A stretch of DNA of 26,125 nucleotides from a virus (Duplodnaviria; Caudoviricetes), in the IMG/VR virus record IMGVR_UViG_3300025382_000784, positions 1 through 26,125 of that record. The stretch is one strand, 5' to 3'. Below, piece by piece: positions 4,925 to 26,125 of the stretch (position 1 is the first letter of the stretch; the number at the start of each line of letters is the position of its first letter). The notes below the pieces were generated by a model. It was not told where the DNA came from. It saw only the letters and a program-made list of their open reading frames with translations, and did not search any database. The position numbers were made by a program, and so were the translations under genes.

Positions 4925-5095
4925 ACTGTGTATAAGTATAAACATAGTACTTTTCCTCTAGAAACAGAGGATAACTATATATTGTCCCCAAAAGGTTTTG
5001 GGGCAACGGCTATTAACTTTAGGAGAAATAGATACAGCCAAACATTAACCAATGACGGTAGTAGCGATACCTCATCCAGCGTAAAGGAGACAAAA

Positions 5096-8179: not shown

Positions 8180-8561
8180 ACTATTCAATATGAGTTTAAG
8201 TTATCTATTAGTCAAACCATCTAATACAGTTAAAGAACAATTTCAATCAATTCTAAGTCATTTAGTTGAAGATGTAAATGTTTTTATGTTTGACCAAGAT
8301 GATTACGATATTGATTGGTTATTAAGCATTGCACAGCAAGTAGAAGTTTTAATTATTGATATCGATAATTGCGATCCAATAACCAAATTGTTTGTAACAT
8401 GTTTACTTGCTCATCCGAACAGCCATTACATAACAATGGACGACTTAGTTCCTTATAAATTGATAAGTAAAAATCGCATATATAATTTAGATTGGCTAGC
8501 CGAACAAATTAAAAATGCAACTGAACAACAAGACGAAGACGATGATACACAAGAAGAATAA
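8139..8561 (+). CDS. Hypothetical protein, alpha/beta pattern, acidic tail
   Basis: ORF track 8124-8561; first ATG at 8139. Confidence 0.7.
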
Positions 8562-8775
8562 AGGTACTGGCATTACTGTAAAGGATGGTGAAAATATTAA
8601 TGTTTCTCTACGACGATTTAAACGAAAAATTGAAGAAGCTGGAACTTTAGAAACCTTACGTGCCAAAGAATTCTACGAAAAACCAACAACTGAACGCAAA
8701 CGTAAAAAAGGTGCCGCCAAAGCACGTTGGAATAAAAAACTTCGCGATCAACAATTACCACCAAAACTCTATTGA
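8542..8775 (+). CDS. rpsU: Ribosomal protein bS21
   Basis: [19 protein letters not shown]...[14 protein letters not shown] is the bS21 signature; start may be 8515 or 8542. Confidence 0.93.
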
Positions 8776-9855: not shown

Positions 9856-9930
9856 CGTGCTGAAACGCCGTAAGGGTTTAGTACATAGGGCATGGTGCCC
9901 GAATTTACTTGCTTAATTAAGGAGAAAATT
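9856..9930 (+). promoter_or_regulatory. Structured 5' UTR of dnaK, ROSE-like thermometer candidate
   Basis: Two hairpins (GTAA loop; GGGCA-TGG-TGCCC) then TTGCT 9909-9913 opposite AAGGAG 9919-9924. Confidence 0.55.
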
Positions 9931-11826
9931 ATGAGCAAAATCATCGGTATCGATTTAGGTACAACAAATAGCTGTGTGGCAATCTTAGAAAACGGAGTTG
10001 CTAAAGTAATTGAAAACAGCGAGGGTGCTAGAACAACACCATCAATCATTGCGTATACAGATAAAGAAATTTTAGTAGGCGCAACAGCAAAACGACAAGC
10101 AGTCACAAACCCAAAGAATACAATTTACGCAAGTAAGCGTTTAATCGGACGTAAGTTCGAAGAACAAGCTGTGCAAAAAGACATCGACTTGATGCCATAC
10201 ACTATTATCAAAGCTGATAACGGTGATGCATGGATCGAAGCTAACGGCGAAAAGCTAGCACCACAACAAGTGTCAGCAGAAGTTCTACGCAAGATGAAAA
10301 AGACTGCCGAAGACTATCTAGGCGAAACAGTAACACAAGCGGTTATTACTGTACCAGCTTACTTTAACGATAGCCAACGTCAAGCAACTAAAGATGCAGG
10401 ACAAATTGCTGGTTTAGAAGTTCTACGTATTATTAATGAACCAACAGCGGCCGCACTAGCATACGGTGTTGATAAGGCAGATAAACGTGATCGTAAGATT
10501 GCTGTATATGACTTAGGTGGTGGTACATTTGATATTTCAATTATTGAAATTGCCAACATCGATGGTGATAAACAAATCGAAGTACTTGCTACTAACGGTG
10601 ATACATTCCTAGGCGGTGAAGATTTTGACCAAGCTATTATGGATCACTTGGTAGCAGAATTTAAGAAAGAAAATGGTATTGATCTTAAGACAGACGTACT
10701 GGCATTGCAACGTTTAAAAGAAGCCGCAGAAAAGGCCAAGATTGAATTGTCCAGCGCCGCAAGCACTACAGTTAATCTGCCATACGTTACAGCAGATGCA
10801 ACCGGTCCTAAGCACATGAACGTAACAATTAGCCGTAGCAAGTTTGAAGCTATGGTCGAAGCATTGATTCAACGTTCAATTGAGCCATGCAAAACATGTA
10901 TGTCCGATGCTAAAGTTACAGCCGCAGACATTGACGAAGTTATCCTAGTTGGTGGACAAACACGTATGCCAGCAGTACAAGCCGCAGTTGAAAAATTGTT
11001 TGGCAAGGCTCCACGTAAGGATGTTAATCCAGATGAAGCGGTTGCCGCAGGTGCCGCAGTACAAGGTGCTGTTCTAGCAGGCGACAAGACAGACGTATTG
11101 TTGTTAGACGTTACACCATTGACCTTGGGTATTGAAACAATGGGCGGTGTGTTTACCAAGTTGATTGCTAAGAACACAACTATCCCAACTAAACACAGCC
11201 AAACATTTAGTACAGCAGATGATAATCAACCAGCTGTTACAATTAAAGTAGCACAAGGTGAACGTGATTTGTTCAAGTACAATAAATTGCTTGGCGAATT
11301 CAATCTAGAAGGTATTGATCCTGCTCCACGCGGCATGCCACAAATTGAAGTTACACTTGACATCGATGCTAACGGCATTTTGAATGTTAGTGCAACTGAT
11401 AAGAAAACTGGTAAGGCTAACAAGATTACCATTAAGAGTGATTCAGGACTAAGCAAAGAAGATATCGAGCGTATGATTGCAGAAGCGGAAGCCAATGCTG
11501 AATCGGATAAGAAAGCCGCAGAATTAATCAACGCACGTAATAGCGCAGAAAGTCAATTGCACTCAATGGGCAAAGATTTTGATACGTACAAGGATCAAAT
11601 CACCGACGAAGAAAAGACTGCATATGAAACAGCAGTCACTAGCGCACGTGATGCGATTGCAGGAGAAGATATCGAAGCTATCAATTCTAGCATGAGCAAA
11701 TTGTTTGAATCAGCAGGCCCAATCTTAACTAAGAAACAAGCCGCTGAAACAGCGCAAGCAACTGATACAACCGGTGCACAACCTGCAGAAGGCCAAACAG
11801 TTGATGCGGCGTTCAAAGAAGTTTGA
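9931..11826 (+). CDS. dnaK: Chaperone DnaK (Hsp70)
   Basis: [38 protein letters not shown]; true start 9931 after AAGGAG. Confidence 0.98.
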
Positions 11827-11913: not shown

Positions 11914-12342
11914 ATGTCACAAATGCAACTAAGAACTATTAACCCAGCTGACTTAGCACAGATCAGCAGAGCCCTTGTAGGATTTGATCAATATTTCAAT
12001 AATCCTCGATTACAAAACAGCAACTATCCTCCACACAATATTGTGAAGTTTAGTGATAGTGAATATGCTATCGAAGTAGCAGTAGCAGGGTTCAGTAAAG
12101 AAGAAATCACAGTAGAAGTAGACCAAGACCAACTTGTTGTTCGCGGTACTCAAAAAGTTTCAGATGAAACTACTAAAGAGTATTTGCACAAAGGTCTAGC
12201 TAGCCGTGATTTTGAACAAACATGGACTTTAGCAGAGTACATGGAAGTCAAGGATGCAGAAGTCAAGGATGGTATGTTGATTATTAATATTCAACGAATC
12301 ATTCCAGATTCACTAAAGCCAAGACAAATCGAAATTAAATAA
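11914..12342 (+). CDS. Small heat shock protein (Hsp20, IbpA-like)
   Basis: NYPPHNI, IEVAVAGF, YLHKGLASRDF, DGML, C-terminal IEI. Confidence 0.95.
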   Translation: MSQMQLRTINPADLAQISRALVGFDQYFNNPRLQNSNYPPHNIVKFSDSEYAIEVAVAGFSKEEITVEVDQDQLVVRGTQKVSDETTKEYLHKGLASRDFEQTWTLAEYMEVKDAEVKDGMLIINIQRIIPDSLKPRQIEIK

Positions 12343-12348
12343 TCAACC

Positions 12349-12370
12349 GGGGGAGGAAACTCCCCCTCTT
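12349..12370 (+). terminator. Hairpin, probable intrinsic terminator with weak U tract
   Basis: GGGGGAG-GAAA-CTCCCCC followed by TCTT. Confidence 0.65.
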
Positions 12371-12386
12371 AATAGAAAGAGAAAAC

Positions 12387-12689
12387 ATGTCGACAACTGA
12401 TATCCAATTAGAAGAAAAGATTAAAGTAGTAATCAGTGAACCTAAGCGTTGGAAAGTAATCCTATTGAACGATGATTCCACCCCAATGGAATTTGTAATA
12501 TCATTGTTGATGGAAGTTTTTAGACATAACGAAAACACAGCCCGAGATATCATGCTTCAAATACACGAGCAAGGTAGCGGTGTTGCTGGAACATATAGTT
12601 TTGAAATTGCCGAAGCTAAAGCAGTAGAAGCTACAAATGCGGCAAGAACTAACAACCATCCTTTACAAATTAAATTGGAAGAAGAATGA
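12387..12689 (+). CDS. clpS: ClpS N-degron adaptor
   Basis: KVILLNDDSTPMEFVI, MLQIHEQGSGVAGTYSFEIAEAK, HPL. Confidence 0.95.
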   Translation: MSTTDIQLEEKIKVVISEPKRWKVILLNDDSTPMEFVISLLMEVFRHNENTARDIMLQIHEQGSGVAGTYSFEIAEAKAVEATNAARTNNHPLQIKLEEE

Positions 12690-13237
12690 GTTTACGTGAT
12701 CTCACTAAAGAAGCACATACTAATGCTGAACGTCAGGAATTTGTAAAAATTCTGTTTTCCGGTAACATGGATCCAAAACTCTATGCTACATTTTTAAAGA
12801 ATCAACATCCGTGCTATGAGTTATTAGAAGTATGCGCAATGACACATGGACTACTAAGTGATATGCCCGATGTTCGTAGAGCTCCTTATATTTTAAGTGA
12901 CTTTATGGAACTATGGGGATCCGATAGTACTGAAGCACCAAAGATTTGTCCAGTTGTTCAAGAATACTTAGATCACATAATGAGTATTAAGCATGATCCC
13001 CATAAATTAATGGCACACTTATATGTACGCCATATGGGAGATTTAGCTGGAGGCCAAATGATTGCTAAACGAGTACCTGGTAGTGGTCGTATGTATCAAT
13101 TTGAAAATCCTGAAGAAATTAAAACAGCGATTCGTGCTAAAATTAGTGATGATATGGCAGATGAAGCAAATATATGCTTTGGATTTGCTACCCAACTGTT
13201 TAAAGAAATGTTAGAAATTGCCGATGAACTCAAGTAA
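12686..13237 (+). CDS. Heme oxygenase (biliverdin-producing)
   Basis: TKEAHTNAE proximal His; HLYVRHMGDLAGGQ distal helix signature. Confidence 0.92.
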   Translation: MSLRDLTKEAHTNAERQEFVKILFSGNMDPKLYATFLKNQHPCYELLEVCAMTHGLLSDMPDVRRAPYILSDFMELWGSDSTEAPKICPVVQEYLDHIMSIKHDPHKLMAHLYVRHMGDLAGGQMIAKRVPGSGRMYQFENPEEIKTAIRAKISDDMADEANICFGFATQLFKEMLEIADELK

Positions 13238-13910
13238 AGTTTGGGATACTCTAATAAATATTCAACATTTATTGGAGACTGAGTTTGGCAGGACTGGCAC
13301 TGAAATCTTTGAGCCTGGAATGGATCGCTTCAATCAGCCTGGCTGGATTAATCGTGTATGGAGTTCTGATCTTTATCGCCGTGCTCACGTTGACGTGGTT
13401 GATGCGAGAGATTCAAAAGGACTCTGGATGATGCATTGTTGCATCTTCCCACATACTCACAACCCTGCTCCTATATTTGGCTTTGATGTAATAGCTGGCA
13501 AGAACAAAATAACTGGTTGTTTTCACGATTTCAGTCCAGCAGGCGATACATTCCATCCTATGATTGAATGGTTTGGTTCTGAAGTTGCCAAACTAGAATG
13601 GCGTAAATCACGTGCTTTGCCTGATTGGGCACAGCGTATTTTTACAGAACACATGGTGGCCGCAGGCAATGTTAGCGATGAAGCAGAGTTAGATCAGATT
13701 ACAGAAATGGCTAGAACTACCCTAGCGCATTATTTGGACTCTGTGGGTGAAACTAACCATACTGTAGCAGATACTACCAGTTTCCAAAACTATTATTGCG
13801 ATAATCAAAAACAAAATCCACATACTCCCCGAGTTATGGCTAGCTTGGGTTTAAATGAGGACGATGTACACGCATTCATACAGGAATGTCTCTTCCCTGA
13901 AATAGTATAA
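13224..13910 (+). CDS. Ferredoxin-dependent bilin reductase, PcyA/PcyX-like
   Basis: RRAHVDVVD, MMHCCIFP, PIFGFDVIAG, HDFSP, LPDWAQRIF, QNYYCDNQKQNPHT; adjacent to heme oxygenase. Confidence 0.88.
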   Translation: MNSSKVWDTLINIQHLLETEFGRTGTEIFEPGMDRFNQPGWINRVWSSDLYRRAHVDVVDARDSKGLWMMHCCIFPHTHNPAPIFGFDVIAGKNKITGCFHDFSPAGDTFHPMIEWFGSEVAKLEWRKSRALPDWAQRIFTEHMVAAGNVSDEAELDQITEMARTTLAHYLDSVGETNHTVADTTSFQNYYCDNQKQNPHTPRVMASLGLNEDDVHAFIQECLFPEIV

Positions 13911-13913
13911 ATA
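13906..13913 (+). promoter_or_regulatory. T4-type late promoter TATAAATA
   Basis: Exact TATAAATA, 7 nt before ATG 13921. Confidence 0.7.
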
Positions 13914-13920
13914 TTGTACT

Positions 13921-15597
13921 ATGCATATTTTAGACATTTTATCAGAAGCCAGCCTAGTTTCAGGTGCAAAAAGTTACAGCTACGGCCATGCTGTTCGTCT
14001 CAAGGACAGCCCTACCGCTATGAAAGGCGGAGTACAAAAAATATTAGATGCTGTACCTGGTTTGGAAAACGATGAAAAATTAGAATGGATTGATCCCAAA
14101 TCCGTTAACAAAAAAACAGATGAAATTTATCCAGTAATACTTGGCAGAGGCGGTGATTCATTGTTTTTTAGACGAGCAGACAACTCAGTTCTATTAATAC
14201 AAGGTCCTGTCAAAACAATAGAAGGACTGTTACTACATTACGAATCCTTCAATAGAGGTGATATTGCAGAAGGCTTGTTAGGTGCGGCACTTACTGCGAA
14301 ATTGGTCAAACGTGGCGGCGATAGAATTGGTAAAATTGATATAACCGATATCAAGAATATTTTGAATCAGGCAGTGGCCCGCGGCGATAACACCATGGTT
14401 GTTAGAGTAAATGATAAAAATAGCGAAATTGCTGACAATGTAAATTTTTATTTAAGATTGCCAACCAACAGCATGGCTTTTATTAAAACCCCAGCCAACT
14501 GGGATCGTGTTCAAGATTTGTTCAGCAGTGCTCTAGAATATTGCAACGGTACAGATGCGGAACGTTATAGCAATTATTTTTACCGCAACGGCAAAGTGGA
14601 TGATGTTAGAATTGTCAGTGACGGAGTTGGCGGTTCAAAAGAACGTAAAACTGATGTACAAGCAGTGGTATATGAGACTGACCCCATCACTGGTAAGAAA
14701 ACCAAACGTGATCTAAAAAATGTAGATATCAGTCTCAAAGCTGACAGCGATACTATAGGACAAATGACTTCAGGAGGGTTGCAAGCCAAACCAGATGTGT
14801 GGCTTGCAAATGCCAATGAAATGTTTAATCAATTGGGTGTGAGTGTGGTTATGCCTTTGAAAGGCAAAAATGATATTATATCTTTTTGGAATAATGTATA
14901 TAAACAAGCCTATAATCAATTAAAAACTATTTTGGCTGAATCCAATGCCAACAAAGAAACTGCCATCATAGAGAAAATAGCTGATTTTCTTGAAAAACAA
15001 GGTTCACAACAATTAGATAAAGAAACTAATACATGGAGTGTGAATAAAAATTTAAAACTGCTGAGTTTTAAAGGCGGCACTTATACCATGCACAGTTTTG
15101 CCATATTAAAAAAACAATTGATTAATAAAGGTATCAATTTAGATGTAAAACTTGTGGTTGGAAAAGCCAGCCAGAAACCTAAGATAGTGTTTTTTGATAC
15201 AGGAGCGACTGGTTTAGCCCTTGCAGAAATTAGATATACACAAGGTGCAACAAAATCCAGTAATTATTTCACCAAAGGTCCGTTAATGAGTGAATTAACT
15301 AAAATAGAAAAACATAAACAAGATCCCGGAGAAATTATTGCTCCTCCACCCGCAGATGCAACTCCTCAAAAACCTGTAACAGCACAACCGGTTAAAACTC
15401 CAGCAGGAGCTAAACCGTTAACTATTAAACCAGTTAAACATGATAAGTTCCCACAATGGACTGGACGTCAGCCTACAACTCCAGGACTTGCACCAGTTGG
15501 AACAATATCTGGCACAACTTCAAATATTCCATCATCGAAAAAATCATATGTAGATGAACCGGATGAAATTGTAACAGAAACCAAAAAACGCAAGTAA
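13921..15597 (+). CDS. Large hypothetical protein with Pro/Thr/Lys-rich tail; possible PD-(D/E)xK-like domain
   Basis: 558 aa ORF; NRGDIAEG ... KTDV ... DISLK motif order. Confidence 0.75.
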   Translation: MHILDILSEASLVSGAKSYSYGHAVRLKDSPTAMKGGVQKILDAVPGLENDEKLEWIDPKSVNKKTDEIYPVILGRGGDSLFFRRADNSVLLIQGPVKTIEGLLLHYESFNRGDIAEGLLGAALTAKLVKRGGDRIGKIDITDIKNILNQAVARGDNTMVVRVNDKNSEIADNVNFYLRLPTNSMAFIKTPANWDRVQDLFSSALEYCNGTDAERYSNYFYRNGKVDDVRIVSDGVGGSKERKTDVQAVVYETDPITGKKTKRDLKNVDISLKADSDTIGQMTSGGLQAKPDVWLANANEMFNQLGVSVVMPLKGKNDIISFWNNVYKQAYNQLKTILAESNANKETAIIEKIADFLEKQGSQQLDKETNTWSVNKNLKLLSFKGGTYTMHSFAILKKQLINKGINLDVKLVVGKASQKPKIVFFDTGATGLALAEIRYTQGATKSSNYFTKGPLMSELTKIEKHKQDPGEIIAPPPADATPQKPVTAQPVKTPAGAKPLTIKPVKHDKFPQWTGRQPTTPGLAPVGTISGTTSNIPSSKKSYVDEPDEIVTETKKRK

Positions 15598-15637: not shown

Positions 15638-15645
15638 TATAAATA
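15638..15645 (+). promoter_or_regulatory. T4-type late promoter TATAAATA
   Basis: Exact TATAAATA, 6 nt before ATG 15652. Confidence 0.7.
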
Positions 15646-15651
15646 CTAGAC

Positions 15652-16023
15652 ATGGAAATTTTCATATTATTACTATTACTTCAAATCAAACATTGCTACG
15701 CTGATTTCGTAATACAAACTTACAAGCAAACGGTGCATAAGGGCATCTATCGTGACCCTATTGGCATCAGCCATAGCGTTGACCATGTCTGGACAAGTCT
15801 AGTAGCATTACTTGTCTTTAGTTTTTTCTATACTACAAATCCTTTTACAATCATGTGGTTATGTATTGCAGAGGGTATACTACACTATCACATCGACTTT
15901 GTCAAAGTTAAGTTTGGCAGTAAAGATCAAACAAAACCTATATTTTGGGCACAGTTTGGTCTTGATCAATTAGCACATCAAGTAACATATTTGTTGATGG
16001 CCGCTCTCTTATTAAAATTATAA
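15652..16023 (+). CDS. DUF3307-like membrane protein
   Basis: KHCYADFVIQ, HSVDH, HYHIDFVK, FGLDQLAHQ in a hydrophobic protein. Confidence 0.8.
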   Translation: MEIFILLLLLQIKHCYADFVIQTYKQTVHKGIYRDPIGISHSVDHVWTSLVALLVFSFFYTTNPFTIMWLCIAEGILHYHIDFVKVKFGSKDQTKPIFWAQFGLDQLAHQVTYLLMAALLLKL

Positions 16024-16056: not shown

Positions 16057-16097
16057 CGTTCGGATGTACTTAAATAAAGTATAGAGGAGCGAAACTC

Positions 16098-16610
16098 ATG
16101 AAAAAACTACTGGTATTCAGTACTTTCTGCATACTGACTGCAAATTTTGCACACGCAGAATTAGTACAACAATTCAAAGATCCAACATTCAGCGGGAATG
16201 GTTGGGCTACCCAAGTGTTGACTTTACAACAAATGGAAATGAATAATAAAGCTGCCAATCAAAGTAAAGTCGATGCCGCCGCCGCACAGGCTAAAGCTGA
16301 TGCCGCAAATACTCCAATATCTAAATTTATGAGTTTGTTCAGTAGTCAAGTATACAGTCAACTTGCTACACAGTTGAGCAATAATTTATTTTCAACTTGC
16401 AAAGATTCCAGTGGCGCGGCTATTCCAGGATGCAATCCAGCTACAACAGGAACATTTAACGTAGATGCTAACACTACTGTTAACTGGTTCAAAACTGTAA
16501 GTGATCCTGCTTATAACGGACAAAGTAGTGTTACATTAAAAGTAACAAATAAAGCAGACGCTAGTCAAAACACAACATTAACTGTGCCGATTGCCAGTTT
16601 TGCATTTTAA
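16098..16610 (+). CDS. csgF: Curli assembly protein CsgF-like
   Basis: Signal peptide then ELVQQFKDPTFSGNG (compare CsgF FQFxNPxFGGN), SQVYSQLATQL, GTF; precedes csgG. Confidence 0.75.
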   Translation: MKKLLVFSTFCILTANFAHAELVQQFKDPTFSGNGWATQVLTLQQMEMNNKAANQSKVDAAAAQAKADAANTPISKFMSLFSSQVYSQLATQLSNNLFSTCKDSSGAAIPGCNPATTGTFNVDANTTVNWFKTVSDPAYNGQSSVTLKVTNKADASQNTTLTVPIASFAF

Positions 16611-16624
16611 GGAGAGCTAGATAA

Positions 16625-17476
16625 ATGAAAGTATTAAAATTAACAGCACTAGCCCTTGCAATAGCAATGATGGCAGGTTGCAGTACCGTACGCCCATTGG
16701 GTAAAGTAGATATTCAGGATCAACCTACTGTCAGTAAGAATATGACGAAGGAAATTGATCGACTACCGTCACCAGATGGAGCTCCGATTGCTGTAGCTGT
16801 ATACGGATTCAAAGATTTAACAGGGCAACGTAAAAATAGCCAAACACTAAGTTTGTTCAGTACAGCCGTTACACAAGGTGCTGAAGCATACATGATTAAG
16901 ACCCTACAAGAAGCTGGTAATCGTCAATGGTTTACAGTTGTAGAACGTGTTGGCCTAGACAACTTGTTAAAAGAACGTCAAATGATTAAACAAACACGTG
17001 AGATCTATGAAGGACAAAATGCTAAATTATTACCTCCATTAACTATGGCTGGTGTAATTATTGAAGGCGGTATTATTGATTATAATAGTAACGTTCTTAC
17101 AGGTGGTACAGGAGTAGCTGTATTTGGAATTGGTCCGTACACGCAGTATACACAAGATCAAGTTGTCATCAGCTTGAGATTAGTAAGTGTACAAACTGGC
17201 GAGATCTTAACAACAGTAACCATTGAAAAGAACTTATTGAGTACACAAGATGGTATTACAGCATTAAAATTCTTTAATCAAAACACAGACAGTTTTGAAT
17301 TTGATTCAAGCCAAAGTTTCAATGAGCCAGGAAACTATGCATTGCGTAGTGCCATTGAACAAGGTGTTGTTGAATTGATTAAGAAAGGCGAGCGTCAGGG
17401 ACTATGGCGCTTTAAGACTAGTGTTGTAAATCCAACACCTGTTGAAAATCCCACACCTGAAGTGTTGAAAAAATAA
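16625..17476 (+). CDS. csgG: Curli secretion channel lipoprotein CsgG
   Basis: Lipobox MAGC; VAVYGFKDLTGQRK, FSTAVTQGA, WFTVVERVGLDNLLKERQ, IIEGGIIDY, LRLVSVQTGEIL. Confidence 0.95.
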   Translation: MKVLKLTALALAIAMMAGCSTVRPLGKVDIQDQPTVSKNMTKEIDRLPSPDGAPIAVAVYGFKDLTGQRKNSQTLSLFSTAVTQGAEAYMIKTLQEAGNRQWFTVVERVGLDNLLKERQMIKQTREIYEGQNAKLLPPLTMAGVIIEGGIIDYNSNVLTGGTGVAVFGIGPYTQYTQDQVVISLRLVSVQTGEILTTVTIEKNLLSTQDGITALKFFNQNTDSFEFDSSQSFNEPGNYALRSAIEQGVVELIKKGERQGLWRFKTSVVNPTPVENPTPEVLKK

Positions 17477-17575
17477 CAGCGGAGTATTTCTTTTAGATAC
17501 TTCATATTAAATATTTTAGTAAAGGTAGGTTTGTAGAAGTTTATTTGGGTTAATAGCCCGCGGAGAGTAACAAAA

Positions 17576-18346
17576 ATGAAAATAAAAATAATAGCAGTAG
17601 CCACAGCAATGATCTTGGCACAAACTGCATGGTCACAAACAGCGCCAACAGCGCCAACAGCAACAGTTATACCAGCGGCCGTACAAGCCACTGATGCTAA
17701 TTTTGTCGCAGGCGTAACAACGGCATTAAGCAATGCTACAACCAACATTGTTTACTTACAGCAAAGTGGTAGCACTCCAACTGTAAGTATTACACAAGAT
17801 GGCAACAGCAATAAAATCGGTTATGGTAACGGAACAGCTAACCCTGTTATGTTGAATGGTAGTAATCAAACTGTAAATATTATTCAATCAGGAAATTTGA
17901 ATAGTGTAAACACTTTGACATTGACCACAACTAGTGGTAGTAGCACAGTAAGCCTATTACAAAACGGCAATAGTAATTCAGCAAACATTACTTGTGTTAC
18001 ATGTAACGCATTTGAAGCTAACTGGCAATTTACTGGTAATAGCAATACACTAAACTTCCAAGGCAACGGTGCTAACTTAATCAGTGGTGCTAATGTTCAA
18101 GGAAACGGCAATACTATTAACAGCTTAATGACTGGTGACGGACATCAACAGTTAGTAGATGTTAGCGGTAACAACAACACAATCAACTTAACACAAACTA
18201 GCGCAACCGCTAGCAGTATTAATTTGGCTCAAACTGGTACAGGCACTACTTTTAATATCAGTCAAACAGGCACATATAGTAACGTAGCAAATATTCAAGC
18301 AACTGCTAACGGCGGTAGTTTTAATATTACACAACATAGTCACTAA
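17576..18346 (+). CDS. Secreted curlin-like repeat protein
   Basis: Signal peptide; repeated QxGxxN / xxGxxN units (TQDGNSN, IQSGNLN, LQNGNSN, SQTGTYSN). Confidence 0.8.
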   Translation: MKIKIIAVATAMILAQTAWSQTAPTAPTATVIPAAVQATDANFVAGVTTALSNATTNIVYLQQSGSTPTVSITQDGNSNKIGYGNGTANPVMLNGSNQTVNIIQSGNLNSVNTLTLTTTSGSSTVSLLQNGNSNSANITCVTCNAFEANWQFTGNSNTLNFQGNGANLISGANVQGNGNTINSLMTGDGHQQLVDVSGNNNTINLTQTSATASSINLAQTGTGTTFNISQTGTYSNVANIQATANGGSFNITQHSH

Positions 18347-18355
18347 GGAGTAGCT

Positions 18356-19534
18356 GTGAAATGTTTTGCCCTTTCATTGTTGTTAGTCGCAACAGCGGCT
18401 GTGGCGGACATTGGTTCGGTAACGGATGTCACTGGAATTGCCATTATTAAACGTGGCAGTTCCAGTGTCGTTGTTTCGAAAGGTACTCTGGTGGAAATGA
18501 ATGATCGAGTAGAGGCAAAAGCAGGCGAAGTAAAGATAGTATTCAAAGACGATACAACCGTGCGAGTAACGGCAAGTAGCGCATTAGTCATAGACGATTT
18601 CGTTTACGATCCTAAAACTAAAGGTGGTAAACTTGGCCTTAAGGCCGCGGAAGGCACAGTACGTTATGTGTCTGGTAATATTGCTCACAATAATCCAAAT
18701 AGTGTGAACATCAAGACCCCCACAGCCGCTATTGCGGTTCGTGGGACCGATTTTGTTATGGCGGTTGGCGAAACAGGTGCAAGTACTGTTATTCTTATGC
18801 CAACTTGTGAAATAGAACATAACATTAATTTAAAAGGCTTAATCTGCGGTAGTGGTGCTATTGATGTACAATCAGGCGGGCACATTATACACATGACTAA
18901 ACCTTATGAAGCGGCAATGGTAATGAATCAAGACGATGCACCAATGGGCCCGGTAGTTGTTGACCTAGGCGGCGCTCCTATTGGTAATAACTTGATGATA
19001 ACTCCACCTAAGACCCCAACTGGTATGACTATTCAGCAGGCCGCAAGAAGTGCCGCTGAAAAAACAGGTGATGTTAGAAAGAAAGAAAGTGTAGATAAAA
19101 AAGAAGATAACAAACAAGCACAAGGCTCTGAAAATAACAATCCAACTAGTGGTGAAGCGGCCGCACAACAACAGCAACAACAACGTGAACAACAAGCACA
19201 GTCTAGTGAACAACAGCAACAAGAACAAGCGGCTTTGTTAAACAAAGTTATTGATACTAGTGCTCTTAAAGCCGCAGGTGTAAATGTTAGCAATGCCGCC
19301 AGCGGTGATCCTAATGTATTTGAAATACACAAAGACAACAACGCCACATTACAGCAATTAGGTTGGGGATATGCTAGTTTGAGTGCTAACGGTCATAATT
19401 ATGCTAACATAGCATTACCAACAGACAGCCAAGTGCTAGTGATTGTAACACAAGATCGTGTTACTGATGCTTATAATTTTTCTAGTAGTACTAAGGCATA
19501 TGGTAGCATAATAATCAATCAGAGTTACAAATGA
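18356..19534 (+). CDS. Secreted FecR-domain protein with Gln-rich linker
   Basis: GTG start after AAGGAG; signal peptide; IGSVTDVTG, IVFKDDTTVRV, LVIDDFVYDP, IKTPTAAIAVRGTDF. Confidence 0.88.
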   Translation: MKCFALSLLLVATAAVADIGSVTDVTGIAIIKRGSSSVVVSKGTLVEMNDRVEAKAGEVKIVFKDDTTVRVTASSALVIDDFVYDPKTKGGKLGLKAAEGTVRYVSGNIAHNNPNSVNIKTPTAAIAVRGTDFVMAVGETGASTVILMPTCEIEHNINLKGLICGSGAIDVQSGGHIIHMTKPYEAAMVMNQDDAPMGPVVVDLGGAPIGNNLMITPPKTPTGMTIQQAARSAAEKTGDVRKKESVDKKEDNKQAQGSENNNPTSGEAAAQQQQQQREQQAQSSEQQQQEQAALLNKVIDTSALKAAGVNVSNAASGDPNVFEIHKDNNATLQQLGWGYASLSANGHNYANIALPTDSQVLVIVTQDRVTDAYNFSSSTKAYGSIIINQSYK

Positions 19535-21585
19535 AACGTTTTTTAATTTGTTTATTCTCTTTAATAGGAATTCATTTCAGCGCCTATAGTCAAGCAGGCG
19601 ATCTTCCTGCTGGATACTTGGGTAGTGTTCTAAATTATTCATACGGAACACAACCATACAATTATTCATTTACTCCTACAACTTCGGGAGTAGACTATGT
19701 GGGATTTGCTTTTAGACAAGATCCAGGATTTTGGACATTTACTAATCCAGATGTAACCGCAGGCAATAGCTCTACTAATTTATTAATTAACGGCAACTTA
19801 CAATACGGCGGTGGTTTGTCAGTAAACACTACAAATTATGGAACACAGTATATTCAAGCACCTAGTGATTGGGGAGTATGGTATCAAAATGGAACATACC
19901 CTAGTGCGGCAGGTAGTTGGAGTCCCGGTCAATGGTACGATGGTGCTGTAGGTTCGTACGATGGTATCTATCAAGGTATAAATGTAACAGCTGGTACAAC
20001 TTATCATATTAGTTTTAGTTTGTCAGGAACTAATCCTAGTAGTAATCCTAGTATTGAAGTAGGAACTTATATGGGTACTTGCGCGGCCGGTACAAGCATT
20101 TTTACTTGTGTGCCAAATACAAGTGCCAGTATGAGTGCGATTGCGGCGCCACAAGCAACACAATCAGTAGGCGGCGCTCCTGCTCCTGTAGTTCCTGTTG
20201 CACCACCTAGTGTTGCATTTACAGATTTGAAATTCAGTGGCAATCAAATCGCCGACACACAATGGAACGTGGGATCATGTACTAATGCTGGCGGAACTAA
20301 TTGTCAAATTTACAGTAAGAATCCTGGCCCAACCTGGAACACAGGTAGTCCAGTATATCCAACAAGTACACAATATATTGCCTTTACTGCTACTGGCGAC
20401 TCAACCAATCCTTGGCACATGTGGTTATACAATAGTGATGGAAGCGTAGCAAGAGATTTAGGTGTAGGACATATATTAAGTCAAGGTTTAGGCAGTGACG
20501 GACATCATTATTTCTTTTTTAGTAATGCCAATTTTAATGGAACATTGTTTAGTACAGATTGGGGTATGAACAACACAGCTGGCGTTACTATTAACGGAAC
20601 TAATAGTCCTACCGTAGCACAAACTAATGACTTTGCCAGCACAGGATCTACAACACCATTAGCCGCAGGTGCAACTGGTGGTAGCGGAAGTTCTGCACCT
20701 ACTGTTACTGGTACAACTACTTCAAATACAACAACTACAAGTTCAAGTGATGGTGCTACAACTACTACTAACAATAACTACACTTTTGGCGGACAAAATT
20801 ATACAGTAACAGGAACTAGCACACCTACTACAACAACAGTAACAGTAACTCCTATAACTACTACAACATATAGTGATGGGTCGACAACTACTACTCCTGG
20901 TACAACTACAACAACATCAACTACTACTTGGAATTATACAGTAACTGGCCCAGCTAATGGTCCAACTAGTCCTTATGCTGGAACTAATACTAATGGAGTT
21001 TATATAACACAGTCTACTGGTAGTAGTAATACAGTCAGTGCTTATCAAAGTGGGCATGGCAATTATGAAAGTATCAATTTATCAGGTACTGGTAATACTA
21101 TAAATGCTGGGCAAGGATACACATTTAATACCATTGGTATTGCTAGTGAATCGTTAACAGTTAGCAATTACAATGTCTTAGGATTATCAGTTACTGGCAA
21201 CAGTAATAATGTTACAACTACACAATTAGGTACAGCTAATAGTGCAATTATAAATGTTGCAGGTGGAACTAATACTATAACTGTTGCACAAAATGGCAAC
21301 AACAATCAAGAGTACAATATTATCAATGGTTCAGGCAATGCACTATCAGTTAGTCAAACTGGCAACAATCATATTGTTGCGGTTAACTTATATGGCAACA
21401 GTAATGTGGCCAGTGTATCACAAACAGGACCAGCCGCAATGGGTGCTGTACTGAGTTTGACAAACGCCGGCGGACCTAACAACATTACTGTGTCGCAAAC
21501 TGGATCAACTAGCCAAAATTTTAGCCTACAACAAACTTGTACGAATGGTGCAGGTTGTAACGCAACTGTAACACAAGGTCATTAA
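19531..21585 (+). CDS. Large secreted protein: aromatic-rich beta domains, Thr-rich linker, C-terminal curlin repeats
   Basis: Signal peptide; Trp/Tyr-rich N-terminal domains; poly-Thr linker; YQSGHGN, TQLGTAN, AQNGNNN, SQTGNNH repeats; ends CTNGAGCNATVTQGH. Confidence 0.8.
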   Translation: MKRFLICLFSLIGIHFSAYSQAGDLPAGYLGSVLNYSYGTQPYNYSFTPTTSGVDYVGFAFRQDPGFWTFTNPDVTAGNSSTNLLINGNLQYGGGLSVNTTNYGTQYIQAPSDWGVWYQNGTYPSAAGSWSPGQWYDGAVGSYDGIYQGINVTAGTTYHISFSLSGTNPSSNPSIEVGTYMGTCAAGTSIFTCVPNTSASMSAIAAPQATQSVGGAPAPVVPVAPPSVAFTDLKFSGNQIADTQWNVGSCTNAGGTNCQIYSKNPGPTWNTGSPVYPTSTQYIAFTATGDSTNPWHMWLYNSDGSVARDLGVGHILSQGLGSDGHHYFFFSNANFNGTLFSTDWGMNNTAGVTINGTNSPTVAQTNDFASTGSTTPLAAGATGGSGSSAPTVTGTTTSNTTTTSSSDGATTTTNNNYTFGGQNYTVTGTSTPTTTTVTVTPITTTTYSDGSTTTTPGTTTTTSTTTWNYTVTGPANGPTSPYAGTNTNGVYITQSTGSSNTVSAYQSGHGNYESINLSGTGNTINAGQGYTFNTIGIASESLTVSNYNVLGLSVTGNSNNVTTTQLGTANSAIINVAGGTNTITVAQNGNNNQEYNIINGSGNALSVSQTGNNHIVAVNLYGNSNVASVSQTGPAAMGAVLSLTNAGGPNNITVSQTGSTSQNFSLQQTCTNGAGCNATVTQGH

Positions 21586-21603: not shown

Positions 21604-21666
21604 ACGGGCACAAGATAAGGTGTCGTGGGAATCCGTAATCCACAGAGGACCCTTGGTCCTTTTTTT
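21604..21666 (+). ncRNA. Candidate small RNA (about 60 nt, three hairpins)
   Basis: Lies between TATAAATA 21592-21599 and an intrinsic terminator; no ORF. Confidence 0.4.
21646..21666 (+). terminator. Intrinsic terminator
   Basis: AGGACC-CTT-GGTCCT followed by a T run. Confidence 0.85.
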
Positions 21667-21698
21667 ATGACTAAATATTTGTCAAGGAGGAACTTGCC

Positions 21699-21900: not shown

Positions 21901-22680
21901 ATGACACCGAAAACTTATCGCAGTATTTTTATTTCTGATGTACACCTCGGCACACGTGACTCACAAGCGGCCAAGCTCAACAACTTTCTTAAACACAACA
22001 CCTGCGAAACACTATATCTTGTAGGAGATATCATTGATGCGTGGAAAATCCAACAAAACAAATGGCGATGGAAACAAGCGCACACCAACGTTGTTCGACG
22101 TGTGTTGGGTCACGCTAAACGTGGTACTCGTGTTGTATATGTTGCTGGTAATCATGATGAGTTCTTAAGACCGATGATACCATATGGATTTAGTTTTGGG
22201 CTTGTTGAAATACATAATCAAACAGACCACATTGGTGCAGACGGTAAACATTATCTTGTTACACACGGCGATTTATTTGATGGTATTACTCGTCTTGCTC
22301 CGTGGCTTGCATTTCTAGGTGACAAGTTATACGATCTAGTATTAGAATGGAACAGCAAGTTTAACTGGATACGCCACAAGTTAGGTTTTGGATATTGGAG
22401 TCTTAGTAAATATCTCAAGCATAAAGTTAAGAAGGCCAGTGACTTTATGTTTCAATTCGAAAACAACATAGCACGTTACTGTAAGAAACGAGGGTTCGAT
22501 GGTGTAATATGCGGACATATACATCACGCAGAAATCAAAACAATAGATGGCGTCATTTATATGAATGATGGCGACTGGGTTGAAAGTTGTACAGCACTAG
22601 TTGAGCATCATGATGGTCAATGGGAAATAATTACATGGACACGAGAAAATGACAAAGACGATACTGATAATAACGGATAA
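21901..22680 (+). CDS. Metallophosphoesterase, PlcP/LpxH2-like phospholipase C
   Basis: ISDVHLG, LVGDIID, GNHDE, THGD, CGHIH, NDGDWVES; paired with GT4. Confidence 0.9.
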   Translation: MTPKTYRSIFISDVHLGTRDSQAAKLNNFLKHNTCETLYLVGDIIDAWKIQQNKWRWKQAHTNVVRRVLGHAKRGTRVVYVAGNHDEFLRPMIPYGFSFGLVEIHNQTDHIGADGKHYLVTHGDLFDGITRLAPWLAFLGDKLYDLVLEWNSKFNWIRHKLGFGYWSLSKYLKHKVKKASDFMFQFENNIARYCKKRGFDGVICGHIHHAEIKTIDGVIYMNDGDWVESCTALVEHHDGQWEIITWTRENDKDDTDNNG

Positions 22681-23647
22681 TCTTCCGGATCAAATAAATG
22701 GCGTTGTCACTACGTACAAAAATATTGAAGCGTGTGCGCTTCTGGACGGTTATAACGTTGTTTTTCTTCATCCCGGGTGGTTCAGCTATATTGATTGCCC
22801 TGGCTACAACGAAGTCAAGATTAGCTATCCCAGGAATATGGGCAAGAAGATTGCGTCGGTCAATCCGGATTATATCCATATCGCCACAGAGGGTCCTCTT
22901 GGCATGTGGGCTAGAGCATATCTTTCATTGGCTGATATTCCTCACAATACCGCTTATCACACTAAGTTTCCTGAAGGGCTCAAAAAGTTATTTGGAATAC
23001 CTGAGTCATTTACTTGGCGTTTTGTACGTTGGTTTCATAAACATAGTGGCAAAGTTTTAACAACGACTGACAGCATGGTTGCTGAATTAAAGGCACACGG
23101 ATTTAGTGGTGAAGTTATTCCTTGGACACGAGGTGTTGATCGTACAATATTCACCCCTAATCTAAGAGAACAAGTTCCGGCAAAATACTTATTGTGTGTT
23201 AGCCGTGTTAGTAAAGAAAAGAATTTAGAAAAGTTCTTTGAATTAGATTATCCTGGATACTTAAAAATTATGGTAGGAGATGGTCCTATGCTAGAAACTT
23301 ATAAGAAACGATATCCTGATGTACATTTTACGGGATTCAAGACAGGAGTTGATCTAGCCAAATATTACGCTAACGCAGAAGCGTTTGTATTTCCTAGTCA
23401 ATGGGAAACATTTGGCATTGTTATGATAGAAGCAATGGCTTGCGGAACTCCTGTTGCGGCTTATCCTTGCCAAGGGCCTGAGGATGTTGTTGATCAAGGC
23501 ATAACAGGATTTATGAATGATAGTTTAGAAGATGCTGTTACAGCTTGTTTACAACTAGATAGAAATCGTGTATATGAAGGAAGCCTGCGCTGGACTTGGG
23601 AAGCCGCTTGGGCAATATTTAGGGACAATTTGATTCCGGCTAAATAG
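22649..23647 (+). CDS. GT4 glycosyltransferase, Agt-like glycolipid synthase
   Basis: QINGVVTT, HIATEGPLG, YHTKFPE, RGVD, RVSKEKN, VFPSQWETFGIVMIEAMACGTPVAA. Confidence 0.9.
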   Translation: MTKTILIITDNLPDQINGVVTTYKNIEACALLDGYNVVFLHPGWFSYIDCPGYNEVKISYPRNMGKKIASVNPDYIHIATEGPLGMWARAYLSLADIPHNTAYHTKFPEGLKKLFGIPESFTWRFVRWFHKHSGKVLTTTDSMVAELKAHGFSGEVIPWTRGVDRTIFTPNLREQVPAKYLLCVSRVSKEKNLEKFFELDYPGYLKIMVGDGPMLETYKKRYPDVHFTGFKTGVDLAKYYANAEAFVFPSQWETFGIVMIEAMACGTPVAAYPCQGPEDVVDQGITGFMNDSLEDAVTACLQLDRNRVYEGSLRWTWEAAWAIFRDNLIPAK

Positions 23648-23670
23648 TAGCACTTAATGAAAGGGCTACT

Positions 23671-23817
23671 ATGTTTGCATTGTATTTTGTAGGTGCCGGC
23701 TTCTTTACTGTGTTCGGATGGAACGCAGGTCAAATAGTGTGGGACAAATGGATCGATCCTCCCGCAATTGAACAACCAGCAGTAAAAAATGACAGAAAAG
23801 AAAAAAACGTGGATTGA
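23671..23817 (+). CDS. Small hydrophobic protein (48 aa, absent from ORF track)
   Basis: MFALYFVGAGFFTVFGWNAGQIVWDKW...; AAGGG RBS-like; TAAATA 23641-23646. Confidence 0.55.
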   Translation: MFALYFVGAGFFTVFGWNAGQIVWDKWIDPPAIEQPAVKNDRKEKNVD

Positions 23818-23905
23818 TCACTACGAGAGAATAGTAGACAATGTATTACGTATATTGTGGCTAGTGTTACTCTTAGGATGGTTAATTAACAATCACCAAC
23901 TATGA
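23789..23905 (+). CDS. Small single-TM protein (38 aa, absent from ORF track)
   Basis: MTEKKKTWIDHYERIVDNVLRILWLVLLLGWLINNHQL*; ATGA overlap with next gene. Confidence 0.5.
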   Translation: MTEKKKTWIDHYERIVDNVLRILWLVLLLGWLINNHQL

Positions 23906-24546
23906 AAAAAACTATCGCTTTATTCATTGCTGATCCTAAGTGTTCAGTACAAAGCGCAAACGGTATAATGAAAGCCTTAGGCAGTCGTTATAATTTTAAG
24001 ATTTTTAGTAAAAATCCTGTAGAAGATAATTTCTTCAATCATGTAGATTTAATTGCTGTACCTGGAGGATTTGGGGATAGTGATAGTTACGACAGTTTGT
24101 TTCGTCATAACGGACAAAATGTAAAACATTTTGTACAGAATGGCGGCAAGTATTTAGGTATCTGTATGGGCGCCTATTGGGCAGGAAGCCATTACTTGAA
24201 TCTATTAGACGGAGTAGACGCAGAACAATATCTAAAAAGACCCGGAGCAGATACTCGACGTCCACATGCTAAAAATATAGCAATAACTTGGCGTAATAAA
24301 CCTATGAATATGTTTTGGTATGATGGCTGTGCATTAGTGGGAAACAAATCCAAATTTGAAATAGTAGCTACCTATGCTAATGGTGATGCTATGGCTATTA
24401 TACAACGTAACATAGGACTAATAGGTTGTCATCCAGAAAGTGAAAAATTTTGGTATGATAGTTATACATGGATGCGTAAGCATTGGCATGATGGACAACA
24501 TCACGCATTACTTCTAGAGTTTGTAGACCAGTTAATGCACAGATAA
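23902..24546 (+). CDS. Class I glutamine amidotransferase-like (BPL_N) protein
   Basis: VPGG, GGKYLGICMGAY nucleophile elbow, GCHPE; Cys-His-Glu triad intact. Confidence 0.85.
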   Translation: MKKTIALFIADPKCSVQSANGIMKALGSRYNFKIFSKNPVEDNFFNHVDLIAVPGGFGDSDSYDSLFRHNGQNVKHFVQNGGKYLGICMGAYWAGSHYLNLLDGVDAEQYLKRPGADTRRPHAKNIAITWRNKPMNMFWYDGCALVGNKSKFEIVATYANGDAMAIIQRNIGLIGCHPESEKFWYDSYTWMRKHWHDGQHHALLLEFVDQLMHR

Positions 24547-24554
24547 ATATTTGC

Positions 24555-25313
24555 ATGAGAGCAACAGAATTCCTTCCCGAACTATTCGACCCTAAACATG
24601 TCCAACCCATAGAGTGGGACGACGATAATCACGCTCGAGCAAAACTAGGCGAAAAAACCATACATATTACATTCTTTGAAACAGGCGGACATGCATACCT
24701 TGAATTTAGTGTTGACCATGAGTTTCAAGTAACTGGCCGAGGTGACGCAAACGCAGTCTTTGCCACCGTTATACAAGCAGTAAAAGAATACGTGGCAAAA
24801 TGGAAGGGTGTACATACTATAACATTTAATGCTAGCGAAAAAAGTCGTGCAAGAATGTACGATGCACTAGCCAAACGTGTAAGCGCACAGTTGGGCTGGC
24901 ATGTAGTTCCTTACGAGGAGATGATGGCCGATCCTAAATATGAAAATATTAGAAAACATGGCGGCTATACATTTGCTATTGAGAAAGGTGCGGCACCTGA
25001 ACATAGACAATCTGCACAAAAGCCACAGCATGAAAAGTTCAAAGACATTTGGTATATAGGTAGTTTGGAAGATACAACTTTACCTGTGTATAAAATAACT
25101 GGTGGTAAAGGTTGGGAAGCTGAACAAATGGTTTTGCGTACCAAACCAGAATATAAAGGTTTCCATCCTATGGGTATGTATAGTAGACATACTCCTCCCA
25201 AGGGACAACAGATTATTGACTTAGGTGATTATAAACCACCGTATAAAGCACCACCGCAAGATCCTAATAGTTTAGGCGCAAAGTTAAGAGCAAAACTGGA
25301 CTTGCCACAATGA
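24555..25313 (+). CDS. Hypothetical protein, candidate head-packaged protein
   Basis: 252 aa; begins MRATEFLPE; TAAATA 24544-24549 directly upstream. Confidence 0.7.
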   Translation: MRATEFLPELFDPKHVQPIEWDDDNHARAKLGEKTIHITFFETGGHAYLEFSVDHEFQVTGRGDANAVFATVIQAVKEYVAKWKGVHTITFNASEKSRARMYDALAKRVSAQLGWHVVPYEEMMADPKYENIRKHGGYTFAIEKGAAPEHRQSAQKPQHEKFKDIWYIGSLEDTTLPVYKITGGKGWEAEQMVLRTKPEYKGFHPMGMYSRHTPPKGQQIIDLGDYKPPYKAPPQDPNSLGAKLRAKLDLPQ

Positions 25314-26125
25314 AAACTGAAACCAAAAACTTAATTAAAAAAGTAGTTTGGAATCCATGGACAGCACTAATAACACTAGCTCTTATAGTAGGCGTAAGAA
25401 TTGCTGATCCTGCATTTGTAGAAAGTGTTAGATTATTATATTTTGATAGACTAATAATAAGTCAACCTGCAAAAGATATTCCTGTTAGTGTAGTCAATAT
25501 TGACGAACCTACGCTAGATAAACTTGGACAGTTTCCATTTCCTAGAGATTATTATGCAGATATCATACAAGACTTATATCAGCATGATGCAGGCTTAGTT
25601 GTATTCAATGTGCTAATGCCAGAAAAAGATCGCTTCAAACAAGATGCTGTCTTAGGGCGTACAATGCAAGCGTTTCCTACAGTATTGCCTACTATTGCTG
25701 GACAAAAGAATAAAAATACTAGTCACGGAAGTCCTGTTCAACCAGTAGGACAAGATCCAGCTGGCAAAGTAGTTGAGTATCCTGGATTACTATCAAACAT
25801 AGAACCACAAAGTAGTGTTGCCGCAGGCATTGGTATTGTTAATACATTTCCTGAAGTAGACGGTAAAGTGCATCGGATGCCATTGGTAATCATGGTAGGA
25901 GATCAGCTGTATCCTAGCCTCGCAATAGAAACCTTACGTGTTGCGGCACAAGATACTCGCATACAAGTTAAAATAGGCGAAGCAGGTGTTGAAGCATTAC
26001 GTATTCCTAAACTAGATCGTATTAATACTGATAGTCTAAGTCGTGTGTGGATTGACTGGAGTGCAACTCCTAAAGAATACAGTTATACAGAATTACCTAA
26101 GTCATTTAACAAAGGCATTGTTATT
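25310..26125 (+). CDS. CHASE2-domain membrane sensor, probably adenylate/guanylate cyclase (runs off window end)
   Basis: Manual translation: N-terminal TM, VVNIDEPTLDKLGQFPFPR, AGLVVFNVLMPEKDR, PEVDGKVHRMPL, YPSLAIETLRV; catalytic domain not visible. Confidence 0.85.
   Translation, partial: MKTETKNLIKKVVWNPWTALITLALIVGVRIADPAFVESVRLLYFDRLIISQPAKDIPVSVVNIDEPTLDKLGQFPFPRDYYADIIQDLYQHDAGLVVFNVLMPEKDRFKQDAVLGRTMQAFPTVLPTIAGQKNKNTSHGSPVQPVGQDPAGKVVEYPGLLSNIEPQSSVAAGIGIVNTFPEVDGKVHRMPLVIMVGDQLYPSLAIETLRVAAQDTRIQVKIGEAGVEALRIPKLDRINTDSLSRVWIDWSATPKEYSYTELPKSFNKGIVI

Follow-up and report, generated by a model that had tools for sequence, protein, structure and literature searches.

A curli-type (type VIII) secretion block has been described in pelagiphage podo- and myoviruses, where the genes follow the order (HK)-csgF-csgG-csgA/B-fecR-csgA/B-adenylate cyclase (Wittmers et al. 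2022, PMC9599517), and the phage CsgG pore has also been discussed by Zaragoza-Solas et al. 2020 (PMC7029224) and Buchholz et al. 2022. The same order was seen in the GenBank annotation of HTVC008M (KC465899, 7562-13807) and Melnitz (MZ577097, 50731-56876). The main text of Wittmers et al. contains no CHASE, lectin, signal peptide or jumbo wording, and takes FecR as an iron-dependent regulator (PMC9599517). Among the publications covered (main texts, few of them from subscription journals), neither an experimental test of the phage block nor a plug model for it was found. Here, a block of this kind was analysed in a virus sequence of 26,125 nucleotides (Caudoviricetes; IMG/VR record IMGVR_UViG_3300025382_000784), the whole of which is called the window below. 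An initial annotation had described a five-gene curli-type secretion cluster at 16098-21585 of the window and had cited csgF and csgG of some aquatic myophages as prior knowledge; this understated the literature, in which the published block already includes curlins, FecR and an adenylate cyclase (PMC9599517 and the GenBank annotation).

All five open reading frames (ORFs) of the initial annotation, from the csgF-like gene to the gene of a 684-amino-acid (aa) curlin-tailed protein, were found in place, and their families were confirmed by Pfam or profile search. The boundaries were too narrow, leaving out a CHASE2 cyclase gene at 25310-26125 and a DUF3307 gene at 15652-16023. The genes csgF, csgG and a curlin-repeat gene adjoin in this order and are followed by fecR and a second curlin gene; the adenylate cyclase gene comes after a further 3.7 kb and is incomplete at the end of the window:

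16098-16610, + strand: CsgF-like protein, 170 aa, signal peptide, phage-type C-terminal extension (PF10614, phrog_35372)
16625-17476, + strand: CsgG outer-membrane lipoprotein pore, 283 aa, lipobox C19 (PF03783, E 1.3e-46)
17576-18346, + strand: first curlin-like protein, 256 aa, degenerate repeats (family profile against solved curlins)
18356-19534, + strand: FecR-domain protein, 392 aa (PF04773, E 6.5e-10; AlphaFold2 model)
19531-21585, + strand: second curlin-like protein, 684 aa (Curlin_rpt, E 2.9e-5, over cut-off)
25310-26125, + strand: CHASE2 class III adenylate cyclase gene, 5' part, 272 aa, cut by the window end (CHASE2, E 1.1e-26)

Carriage by a phage is indicated by the virus record itself and by T4-like gp23, which was over cut-off in 3/5 related records; close relatives reach 383 kb. 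With a probability of about 0.5, we infer that the CsgG/CsgF pore displays a curlin adhesin on the infected cell and is coupled via the FecR protein to cyclic AMP (cAMP) synthesis.

The window shares with the pelagiphage type VIII secretion system the six genes, their order and strand, the lack of CsgC and CsgE, a cyclase with CHASE2 and class III domains, and a PA14 head on the second curlin of HTVC008M as a parallel to its own headed second curlin. It differs in belonging to a separate CsgG clade of T4-like jumbo phages, in its longer, two-headed second curlin and in the displacement of its cyclase by 3.7 kb of cargo. The place of the small 'HK' gene, of which the podovirus form has one or two, is occupied by the DUF3307 gene; in Melnitz and HTVC008M, the small genes ahead of the block were left unlabelled by the DUF3307 profile. 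With the enterobacterial curli operons (csgBAC, csgDEFG) the block has in common the CsgG pore, the CsgF domain and curlin-repeat substrates with Sec-type signals, whereas CsgE and CsgC are lacking, the repeats are degenerate, the passengers are large and lectin-bearing, and a FecR protein and a cyclase are added. The block, which is intact up to the window end, is neither canonical curli nor a FecR anti-sigma system; in its likely working it comes closest to a curli-type adhesin display joined to a CHASE2 cyclase pathway.

The cyclase as a sixth core gene

Pattern scans of IMG/VR for CsgG gave at least 119 viral loci; 589 of 600 listed stretches were confirmed, and about 3,900 matching stretches were estimated. 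Co-occurrence was determined by six-frame profile searches in the 71 viral loci with at least 9 kb downstream. All 71 contained csgF, a first curlin before FecR, and FecR, while the second curlin was present in 66 and the cyclase was within 10 kb in 67. In the remaining 4/4 records, an ORF of 686-711 aa with CHASE2 was located 12-18 kb downstream of csgG, so that the CHASE2 gene was detected in 71/71 records, being retained even when cargo displaces it up to ~18 kb from csgG. Similar proportions were observed at 90% CsgG redundancy (csgF, first curlin and FecR each 53/53, cyclase 51/53, second curlin 49/53). The cyclase is a sixth core gene and co-occurs more strictly than the second curlin (71/71 versus 66/71). 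A synteny survey across phages was a check that the initial annotation had proposed; the cyclase was what that annotation had missed. Among the roles suggested earlier for a surface fibre, namely aggregation, superinfection shielding and sensing, this stricter co-occurrence moves weight from the first two towards sensing, which gains from the presence of the cyclase in 71/71 records.

A CsgG tree was built from 57 of 61 chosen loci and an outgroup (L057, L068, L105 and L108 were dropped by a motif filter). The window CsgG was placed in a clade with 100/98 support, separate from Melnitz and HTVC008M; the root has long branches, and no donor is claimed. Twelve CsgG matches lay on genome contigs. 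Three of them, in gammaproteobacterial metagenome-assembled genomes (MAGs; L064-L066), are flanked by housekeeping genes, between which the order curlin-csgF-csgG-curlin-curlin-FecR was found, and this chromosomal cluster is possibly the cellular counterpart of the phage block. L060, L063 and L067 group among viral CsgG, and L063 has a phage-type DNA polymerase and ligase; these three are probably phage contigs binned into MAGs. A 1.5-kb 'Salmonella phage' csgG record was set aside as probably host csgG.

The export pore and its putative curlin-like substrates

CsgF matched PF10614 with E 3.5e-7 and 30.9 bits against a cut-off of 25.8, and CsgF had no meaningful match to the sequences of solved structures. 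CsgG aligned with the solved E. coli CsgG across residues 9-265 (E 1.2e-43), was 42-46% identical to CsgG of HTVC008M and Melnitz, and stayed below the NCBIfam cut-off for E. coli-type equivalogs (161 versus 505 bits). A lipobox was found in 120/129 CsgG proteins, and its cysteine, C19, did not vary in 18/18. In L006, L007, L067, L082, L090 and L130 the CsgG chain runs on past the pore for another 100-170 aa at its C-terminus; the tail of the window CsgG is short.

Signal peptides, which the initial annotation had assigned to all five proteins, were scored by a simple basic-plus-hydrophobic rule with five cytoplasmic families as controls. The rule was positive for 126/127 CsgF, 127/129 CsgG, 126/127 first curlins, 106/112 FecR proteins and 86/89 second curlins, and for 1/32, 4/42, 1/43, 3/46 and 6/29 control proteins (95-99% versus 2-21% per family), supporting the assignment. 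Export signals together with a lipoprotein pore would require a Gram-negative host. As the initial annotation had stated, no CsgE or CsgC was recognised: each was found in 0/5 complete related phage records by a profile search in which the E. coli control was positive. No csgD was seen in the window, where no family search was aimed at CsgD.

It has been proposed that the pore now serves to time lysis (pinholin- or secretin-like) or to take up nutrients and secretes no fibres (PMC9004378, PMC7029224), which we regard as improbable. Such a role would be compatible with the missing CsgE gate, the phage-type extended CsgF and the phosphate-related cargo that often lies within the block. The proposal was, however, argued from missing curlin genes, yet both are annotated beside csgG in Melnitz and HTVC008M, and the first curlin was present in 71/71 loci; moreover, pinholins work in the inner membrane, and CsgG is a lipoprotein of the outer one.

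The sequence of the 256-aa first curlin had no Pfam match of its own at E<=0.1. Because the profile of 80 homologues matched the solved curlins 8C50 (E 1.8e-17) and E. coli CsgA 8ENQ (E 3.3e-5), the repeats of this protein were classed as degenerate curlin repeats. The curlin motif N-x-psi-x-psi-x-Q builds a left-handed beta-solenoid (PMC10192328). Two strict motifs were counted in the first curlin, a number reached by 505/2000 shuffles. Its length is kept in the family (5-95% range 220-319 aa, near 262), and it is likely the base or major subunit.

In the second curlin, a signal peptide is followed by a galactose-binding-like head (22-215), a second head (226-388), a Thr-rich stalk and a curlin tail (~484-684). 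Eight strict curlin motifs were counted, which 0/2000 shuffles reached, and a C-terminal cysteine pair was present in 86/91 sequences. In the ESM Atlas, the first head scored 0.92 to galactose-binding/DUF642 clusters, which is taken as a lead; the second head gave no usable ESM Atlas match and no Foldseek match in the PDB at E<=0.001, and its VIA-align list was filled by the tail. A model was built on residues 226-684 from an alignment of 27 rows. The repeat proteins had been expected to model as beta-solenoids, and this was borne out for the tail of the 684-aa protein, which is predicted as a beta-solenoid (predicted local distance difference test, pLDDT, 75) with CsgA 8C50 as its best match (Z 18.4), though at a root mean square deviation (rmsd) of 8.4.

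The second curlin varies in length from 86 to 764 aa in 86 complete copies. Its head domains were scanned in 69 of the 86 complete copies, near-duplicates and fragments being omitted by eye, and lectin heads were over cut-off in 23/69 (17 discoidin, 6 PA14). The head order is reversed in the second curlins of L009 and L018. Between L004 and the window, the heads are 95% and 93% identical, the tail 62% and CsgF 52%; heads so much closer than the tail point to recent head swapping. In L102 the adhesin slot (12915-14966) is filled by an autotransporter. The second curlin is likely a swappable adhesin, the heads of which are predicted to bind sugars. Other exported or outer-membrane proteins inserted in the adhesin slot included a 959-aa protein without a Pfam match (L082:14483-17362) and a Gcw_chp protein (L017:12866-13576).

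The curlins might instead polymerise into a long amyloid that aggregates cells ('sibling capture') or shields them from other phages, the cyclase acting upstream by switching on the block or host adhesion genes. This is the strongest competitor of the proposed sensor, and we hold it to be possible though doubtful. Aggregation or shielding has been put forward before (PMC7029224, PMC9599517), the curlin motifs and the solenoid model are in line with a fibre, lectin heads suit adhesion, and in S. meliloti a FecR-domain gene is a cAMP target (PMC5498481). It is less easily reconciled with the degeneracy of the first-curlin repeats noted above, with the cysteine pair at the end of the second curlin, which is more cap-like, with the lack of CsgC in the 5 complete records, and with the TAAATA motifs, which suggest phage late promoters rather than cAMP control; in Melnitz infections, moreover, no clumping was observed (PMC9004378).

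A role of the curlin-like proteins in the virion, as fibres or for receptor binding, is very improbable. Late-promoter motifs would be expected for such proteins, and the hypervariable, swapped lectin heads resemble tail fibres. The signal peptides of the first and second curlins (126/127 and 86/89) and the conserved cysteine pairs argue against it, and curli-FecR genes are also chromosomal in bacteria.

The FecR-domain protein, the cyclase and a possible relay

The AlphaFold2 model of the FecR protein (81 rows, pLDDT 86.9) begins with a signal helix and a beta head and ends in a beta tail; the linker between head and tail includes one long helix and was modelled with low confidence. The head, which spans about residues 18-240, is predicted to have a FecR fold (PupR: Z 15.1, rmsd 2.6, 133 aligned; BDI_1681: Z 13.2). 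Its first ~95 residues also superposed on the anchoring domain of MpIBP, 5IX9 (Z 7.0, rmsd 2.2, 73/76 residues); in Foldseek, the head matched 5IX9 with a TM score of 0.74 on the target and E 1.7e-3, the profile match being at E 0.24. The retention module of LapA, by which an adhesin is held in its pore, was modelled on this anchoring domain (10.1101/198937). The last 45 residues of the FecR protein aligned to the end of the first curlin by hhalign (E 2.8e-4, probability 41%), and an end of the form psi-x-psi-x-Q was found in 65/81 FecR tails and 44/80 first curlins versus 0/61 cyclases and 0/18 CsgG. Head and tail are joined by a segment (P218-G336) that has 67-141 residues in the 81 sequences and is poorly conserved, with a mean column identity of 0.19 for the linker versus 0.65 for the head, the most conserved part of the protein.

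The sole hydrophobic segment of the FecR protein covers residues 4-22, and the conserved fold begins at residue 19. An anti-sigma factor of the FecR type was rejected, there being no cytoplasmic anti-sigma domain and no later membrane helix. FecR/PupR cell-surface signalling thus shares with the phage protein the FecR-fold head (Z 15.1 to PupR), whereas the latter has a signal-peptide-like N-terminus and neither FecI nor a TonB-dependent receptor was seen in the window. The retention module of RTX adhesins (LapA, MpIBP 5IX9) is possibly similar, in that the first part of the FecR head superposes on 5IX9, though at Z 7.0 only, and in a proposed layout of plug, linker and exported part; it differs in using type 1 secretion and TolC instead of Sec and CsgG, and no RTX repeats or LapG were seen here.

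The cyclase ORF is open at the window end, with its CHASE2 domain after an N-terminal membrane helix. L134 encodes a full-length CHASE2 class III cyclase of 693 aa that is 86% identical and has the same neighbours, a glycosyltransferase of family 4 (GT4) and a GATase-like gene. D437, K479, D483, D557, R564 and K603 were invariant in 61/61 homologues. We take the catalytic residues of class III cyclases to be two metal-binding Asp, a purine-selecting Lys, and transition-state Asn and Arg; L134 has all of these. Stand-alone genes of 94-123 aa upstream of csgF were homologous to the last ~100 residues of the cyclase (E 1.8e-13 to 4.5e-6); they lie at L006:9083-9433, L016:8098-8400, L042:1313-1597, L073:9194-9496, L091:6185-6556, L094:7853-8209 and L103:2147-2497, and are possibly cyclase regulators.

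In Campylobacterota, clusters of CHASE2 cyclases and outer-membrane proteins with a FecR domain have been described (PMC9239204), and CHASE2 cyclases of S. meliloti relay signals from the outer-membrane receptor NsrA (PMC7529298, PMC13001267). The S. meliloti NsrA-CyaD1/CyaD2/CyaK-Clr system and the CHASE2/FecR/TPR cluster of Campylobacterota resemble the phage block in having a CHASE2 class III cyclase, a FecR-domain partner gene and signal entry at the outer membrane; the receptor there is a beta-barrel and here would be a curli pore, and no Crp-type receptor was found in related phages. FecR-like matches were present in 90/400 gammaproteobacterial genomes. When the neighbourhoods of 30 bacterial FecR-like loci were fetched with 1.5-kb flanks, a CHASE2 cyclase was within 1.5 kb in 4 of the best 29 other loci.

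The FecR protein might also be exported wholly through CsgG as an extra adhesin on the stalk, with a cyclase that senses envelope stress or the open pore and is linked to it by shared purpose only. This seems unlikely to us. The curlin-like tail would allow it, as would a weak match to a model of the Leptospira surface adhesin Lsa33 (E 3e-8, 33 bits versus a cut-off of 420). The head, however, is the most conserved part of the protein, in contrast to the second curlin, the heads of which vary, and bacterial FecR-like genes adjoin CHASE2 cyclases (4/29) with no curli genes seen in their 1.5-kb flanks.

The sensor proposed here would work as follows. Late T4-type promoters would express the genes, and host Sec and Lol would place the products. 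Both curlins would cross CsgG unfolded and stack on CsgF as a short stalk tipped with lectin heads. The FecR protein would then attach to the stalk through its curlin-like tail; its head, being folded, would stay periplasmic and fill the role of the absent CsgE gate. This head would modulate the CHASE2 domain of the inner-membrane cyclase, and the cAMP level of an infected cell would thereby shift when it touches a surface or another cell. Acting on a host receptor or on an unrecognised phage receptor, cAMP might finally tune lysis timing or host metabolism near new hosts or particles. The export pore and surface fibre on the infected cell that the initial annotation had envisaged are retained here as a CsgG/CsgF-type pore with curlin-like substrates likely at the surface, to which the overlooked cyclase is added. 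In a more specific form, the FecR protein would be a plug-and-tether through CsgG, with its tail in the stalk outside, its linker in the pore and its head, similar to a retention module, in the periplasm on the CHASE2 cyclase, making a touch sensor for nearby cells or particles that times lysis by cAMP; this version is speculative and, on balance, unlikely.

Several observations weigh against the sensor. In the structural comparisons, the 5IX9 match is below Z 8 and was flagged by the tool as a possibly common arrangement, and PupR matches better; the match of the FecR tail to the curlin end has a probability of only 41%. The modelled tail of the second curlin fits SufB/SufD-type helices at rmsd 3.1-4.0 versus 8.4 for curli, and SufB/SufD but no curli were among the Foldseek rows shown for this model, so the hand or twist of the modelled tail may differ from that of curli, or the modelling may be in error. 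When the FecR head (18-240) and the L134 CHASE2 domain (33-320) were predicted as a complex, the score was 0.01 against a mark of 0.32, with controls not folded, which speaks neither for nor against the sensor. As to the cyclase, the gene in the window is cut before the catalytic domain, and that half was judged from the 86%-identical L134; the residue at N560 is Asn in 35/61 and Ser in 26/61 homologues, being Asn in the closest relative L134. The L064-L066 genomes each have one CHASE2 cyclase of the same architecture, unlinked to the curli-FecR genes. A cNMP-binding domain (for cyclic nucleotides) was found in 0/10 related phage records, 6 of them at least 90% complete, and a Crp-type helix-turn-helix (HTH) in 0/5 complete records, so that a reader of cAMP was not found in related phages.

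Published work raises similar objections. In S. meliloti, SMc02177, a protein with a FecR domain, is among the targets of cAMP and is dispensable for signal perception (PMC5498481); it acts downstream of cAMP, a direction opposite to that of the proposed relay. E. coli CsgG secretes no large folded passengers (PMC6302416), which is a problem for the 460 residues of second-curlin heads and stalk. That no clumping was observed in Melnitz-infected cultures (PMC9004378) counts here as well.

Expression signals, neighbouring genes and significance

The remaining features of the region are:

15638-15645, + strand: TATAAATA, T4-type late-promoter-like motif before the DUF3307 gene (motif scan)
15652-16023, + strand: DUF3307 small membrane protein, 123 aa (PF11750, E 5.8e-7)
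16071-16076, + strand: TAAATA motif, beginning 27 nt ahead of the csgF start (motif scan)
17508-17513, + strand: TAAATA motif ahead of the first curlin gene (motif scan)
21644-21672, + strand: terminator-like hairpin (21644-21662) and T run closing the five-gene run (hairpin scan, intergenic)
21901-25313, + strand: non-core cargo, namely metallophosphoesterase, GT4 glycosyltransferase, BPL_N/GATase-like protein and a 252-aa protein (Pfam search)

TAAATA was rarer in the window than expected by chance (22 seen versus 39 expected) and biased to the + strand (18/22). Eleven of the 18 plus-strand copies lay within 100 nt upstream of a start, although such zones make up 15% of the window (binomial p 9e-6), and this proximity was the highest among 15 hexamers of the same composition (range 15-45%). 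The placement fits T4-type late promoters, as we take their consensus to be. The initial annotation had set the genes of the cluster behind such motifs, which applies to csgF (16071) and the first curlin (17508) only. Its closing terminator was seen as an intergenic hairpin and T run behind the fifth gene, a type of site that was not above chance in number (5 versus 3.9 expected in the window). A sigma-70 promoter scan of the window gave 19 sites versus 20 expected, and no tRNA genes were found in it.

The DUF3307 protein is His-rich. Its gene was present in 49/51 close loci versus 2/63 distant loci, a split obtained with a greedy ORF caller, which missed some genes in favour of ORFs on the opposite strand. 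It lies directly upstream of the block in 47 loci and has moved but is nearby in L029, L038 and L041. From this distribution, it may be a clade-specific seventh component.

Within the cargo, the metallophosphoesterase and GT4 genes are at 21901-23647 of the window. A phosphoesterase between FecR and the cyclase was found in 6/76 other viral loci from different CsgG clades, and GT4 in the same slot in 4/76; PstS-like genes lie within the block in L046 and L112. These genes hint at a phosphate-stress hotspot inside the block.

The window also carries cargo of the jumbo-phage type, including DnaK, bS21, IscU, heme oxygenase and bilin reductase. The genes for phage IscU, IscA-like protein, ribosomal protein bS21 and DnaK were located at 3467-4148, 8515-8775 and 9892-11826. 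The region 11914-13910 holds heme oxygenase and ferredoxin-dependent bilin reductase genes, kept upstream of the block in 42-46 loci, together with what we take to be Hsp20-like and ClpS-like genes, likewise upstream of the block in 42-46 loci. A PAAR-motif protein and a Hydrolase_2 cell-wall hydrolase are encoded at 2521-2829 and 4928-5629.

Viral contigs very commonly carry the phage block, and what it does has been debated since 2020, with three rival guesses in print. The copy in the window brings no new gene type. The comparison sharpens the question, in that the cyclase belongs to the core, the second curlin appears as a swappable adhesin, and the head-linker-curlin-tail layout of the FecR protein predicts a topology. 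If the proposed sensor is true, a lytic phage would equip its host with a phage-encoded trans-envelope sensor, and curli pores would signal, beyond their role in biofilm amyloid.

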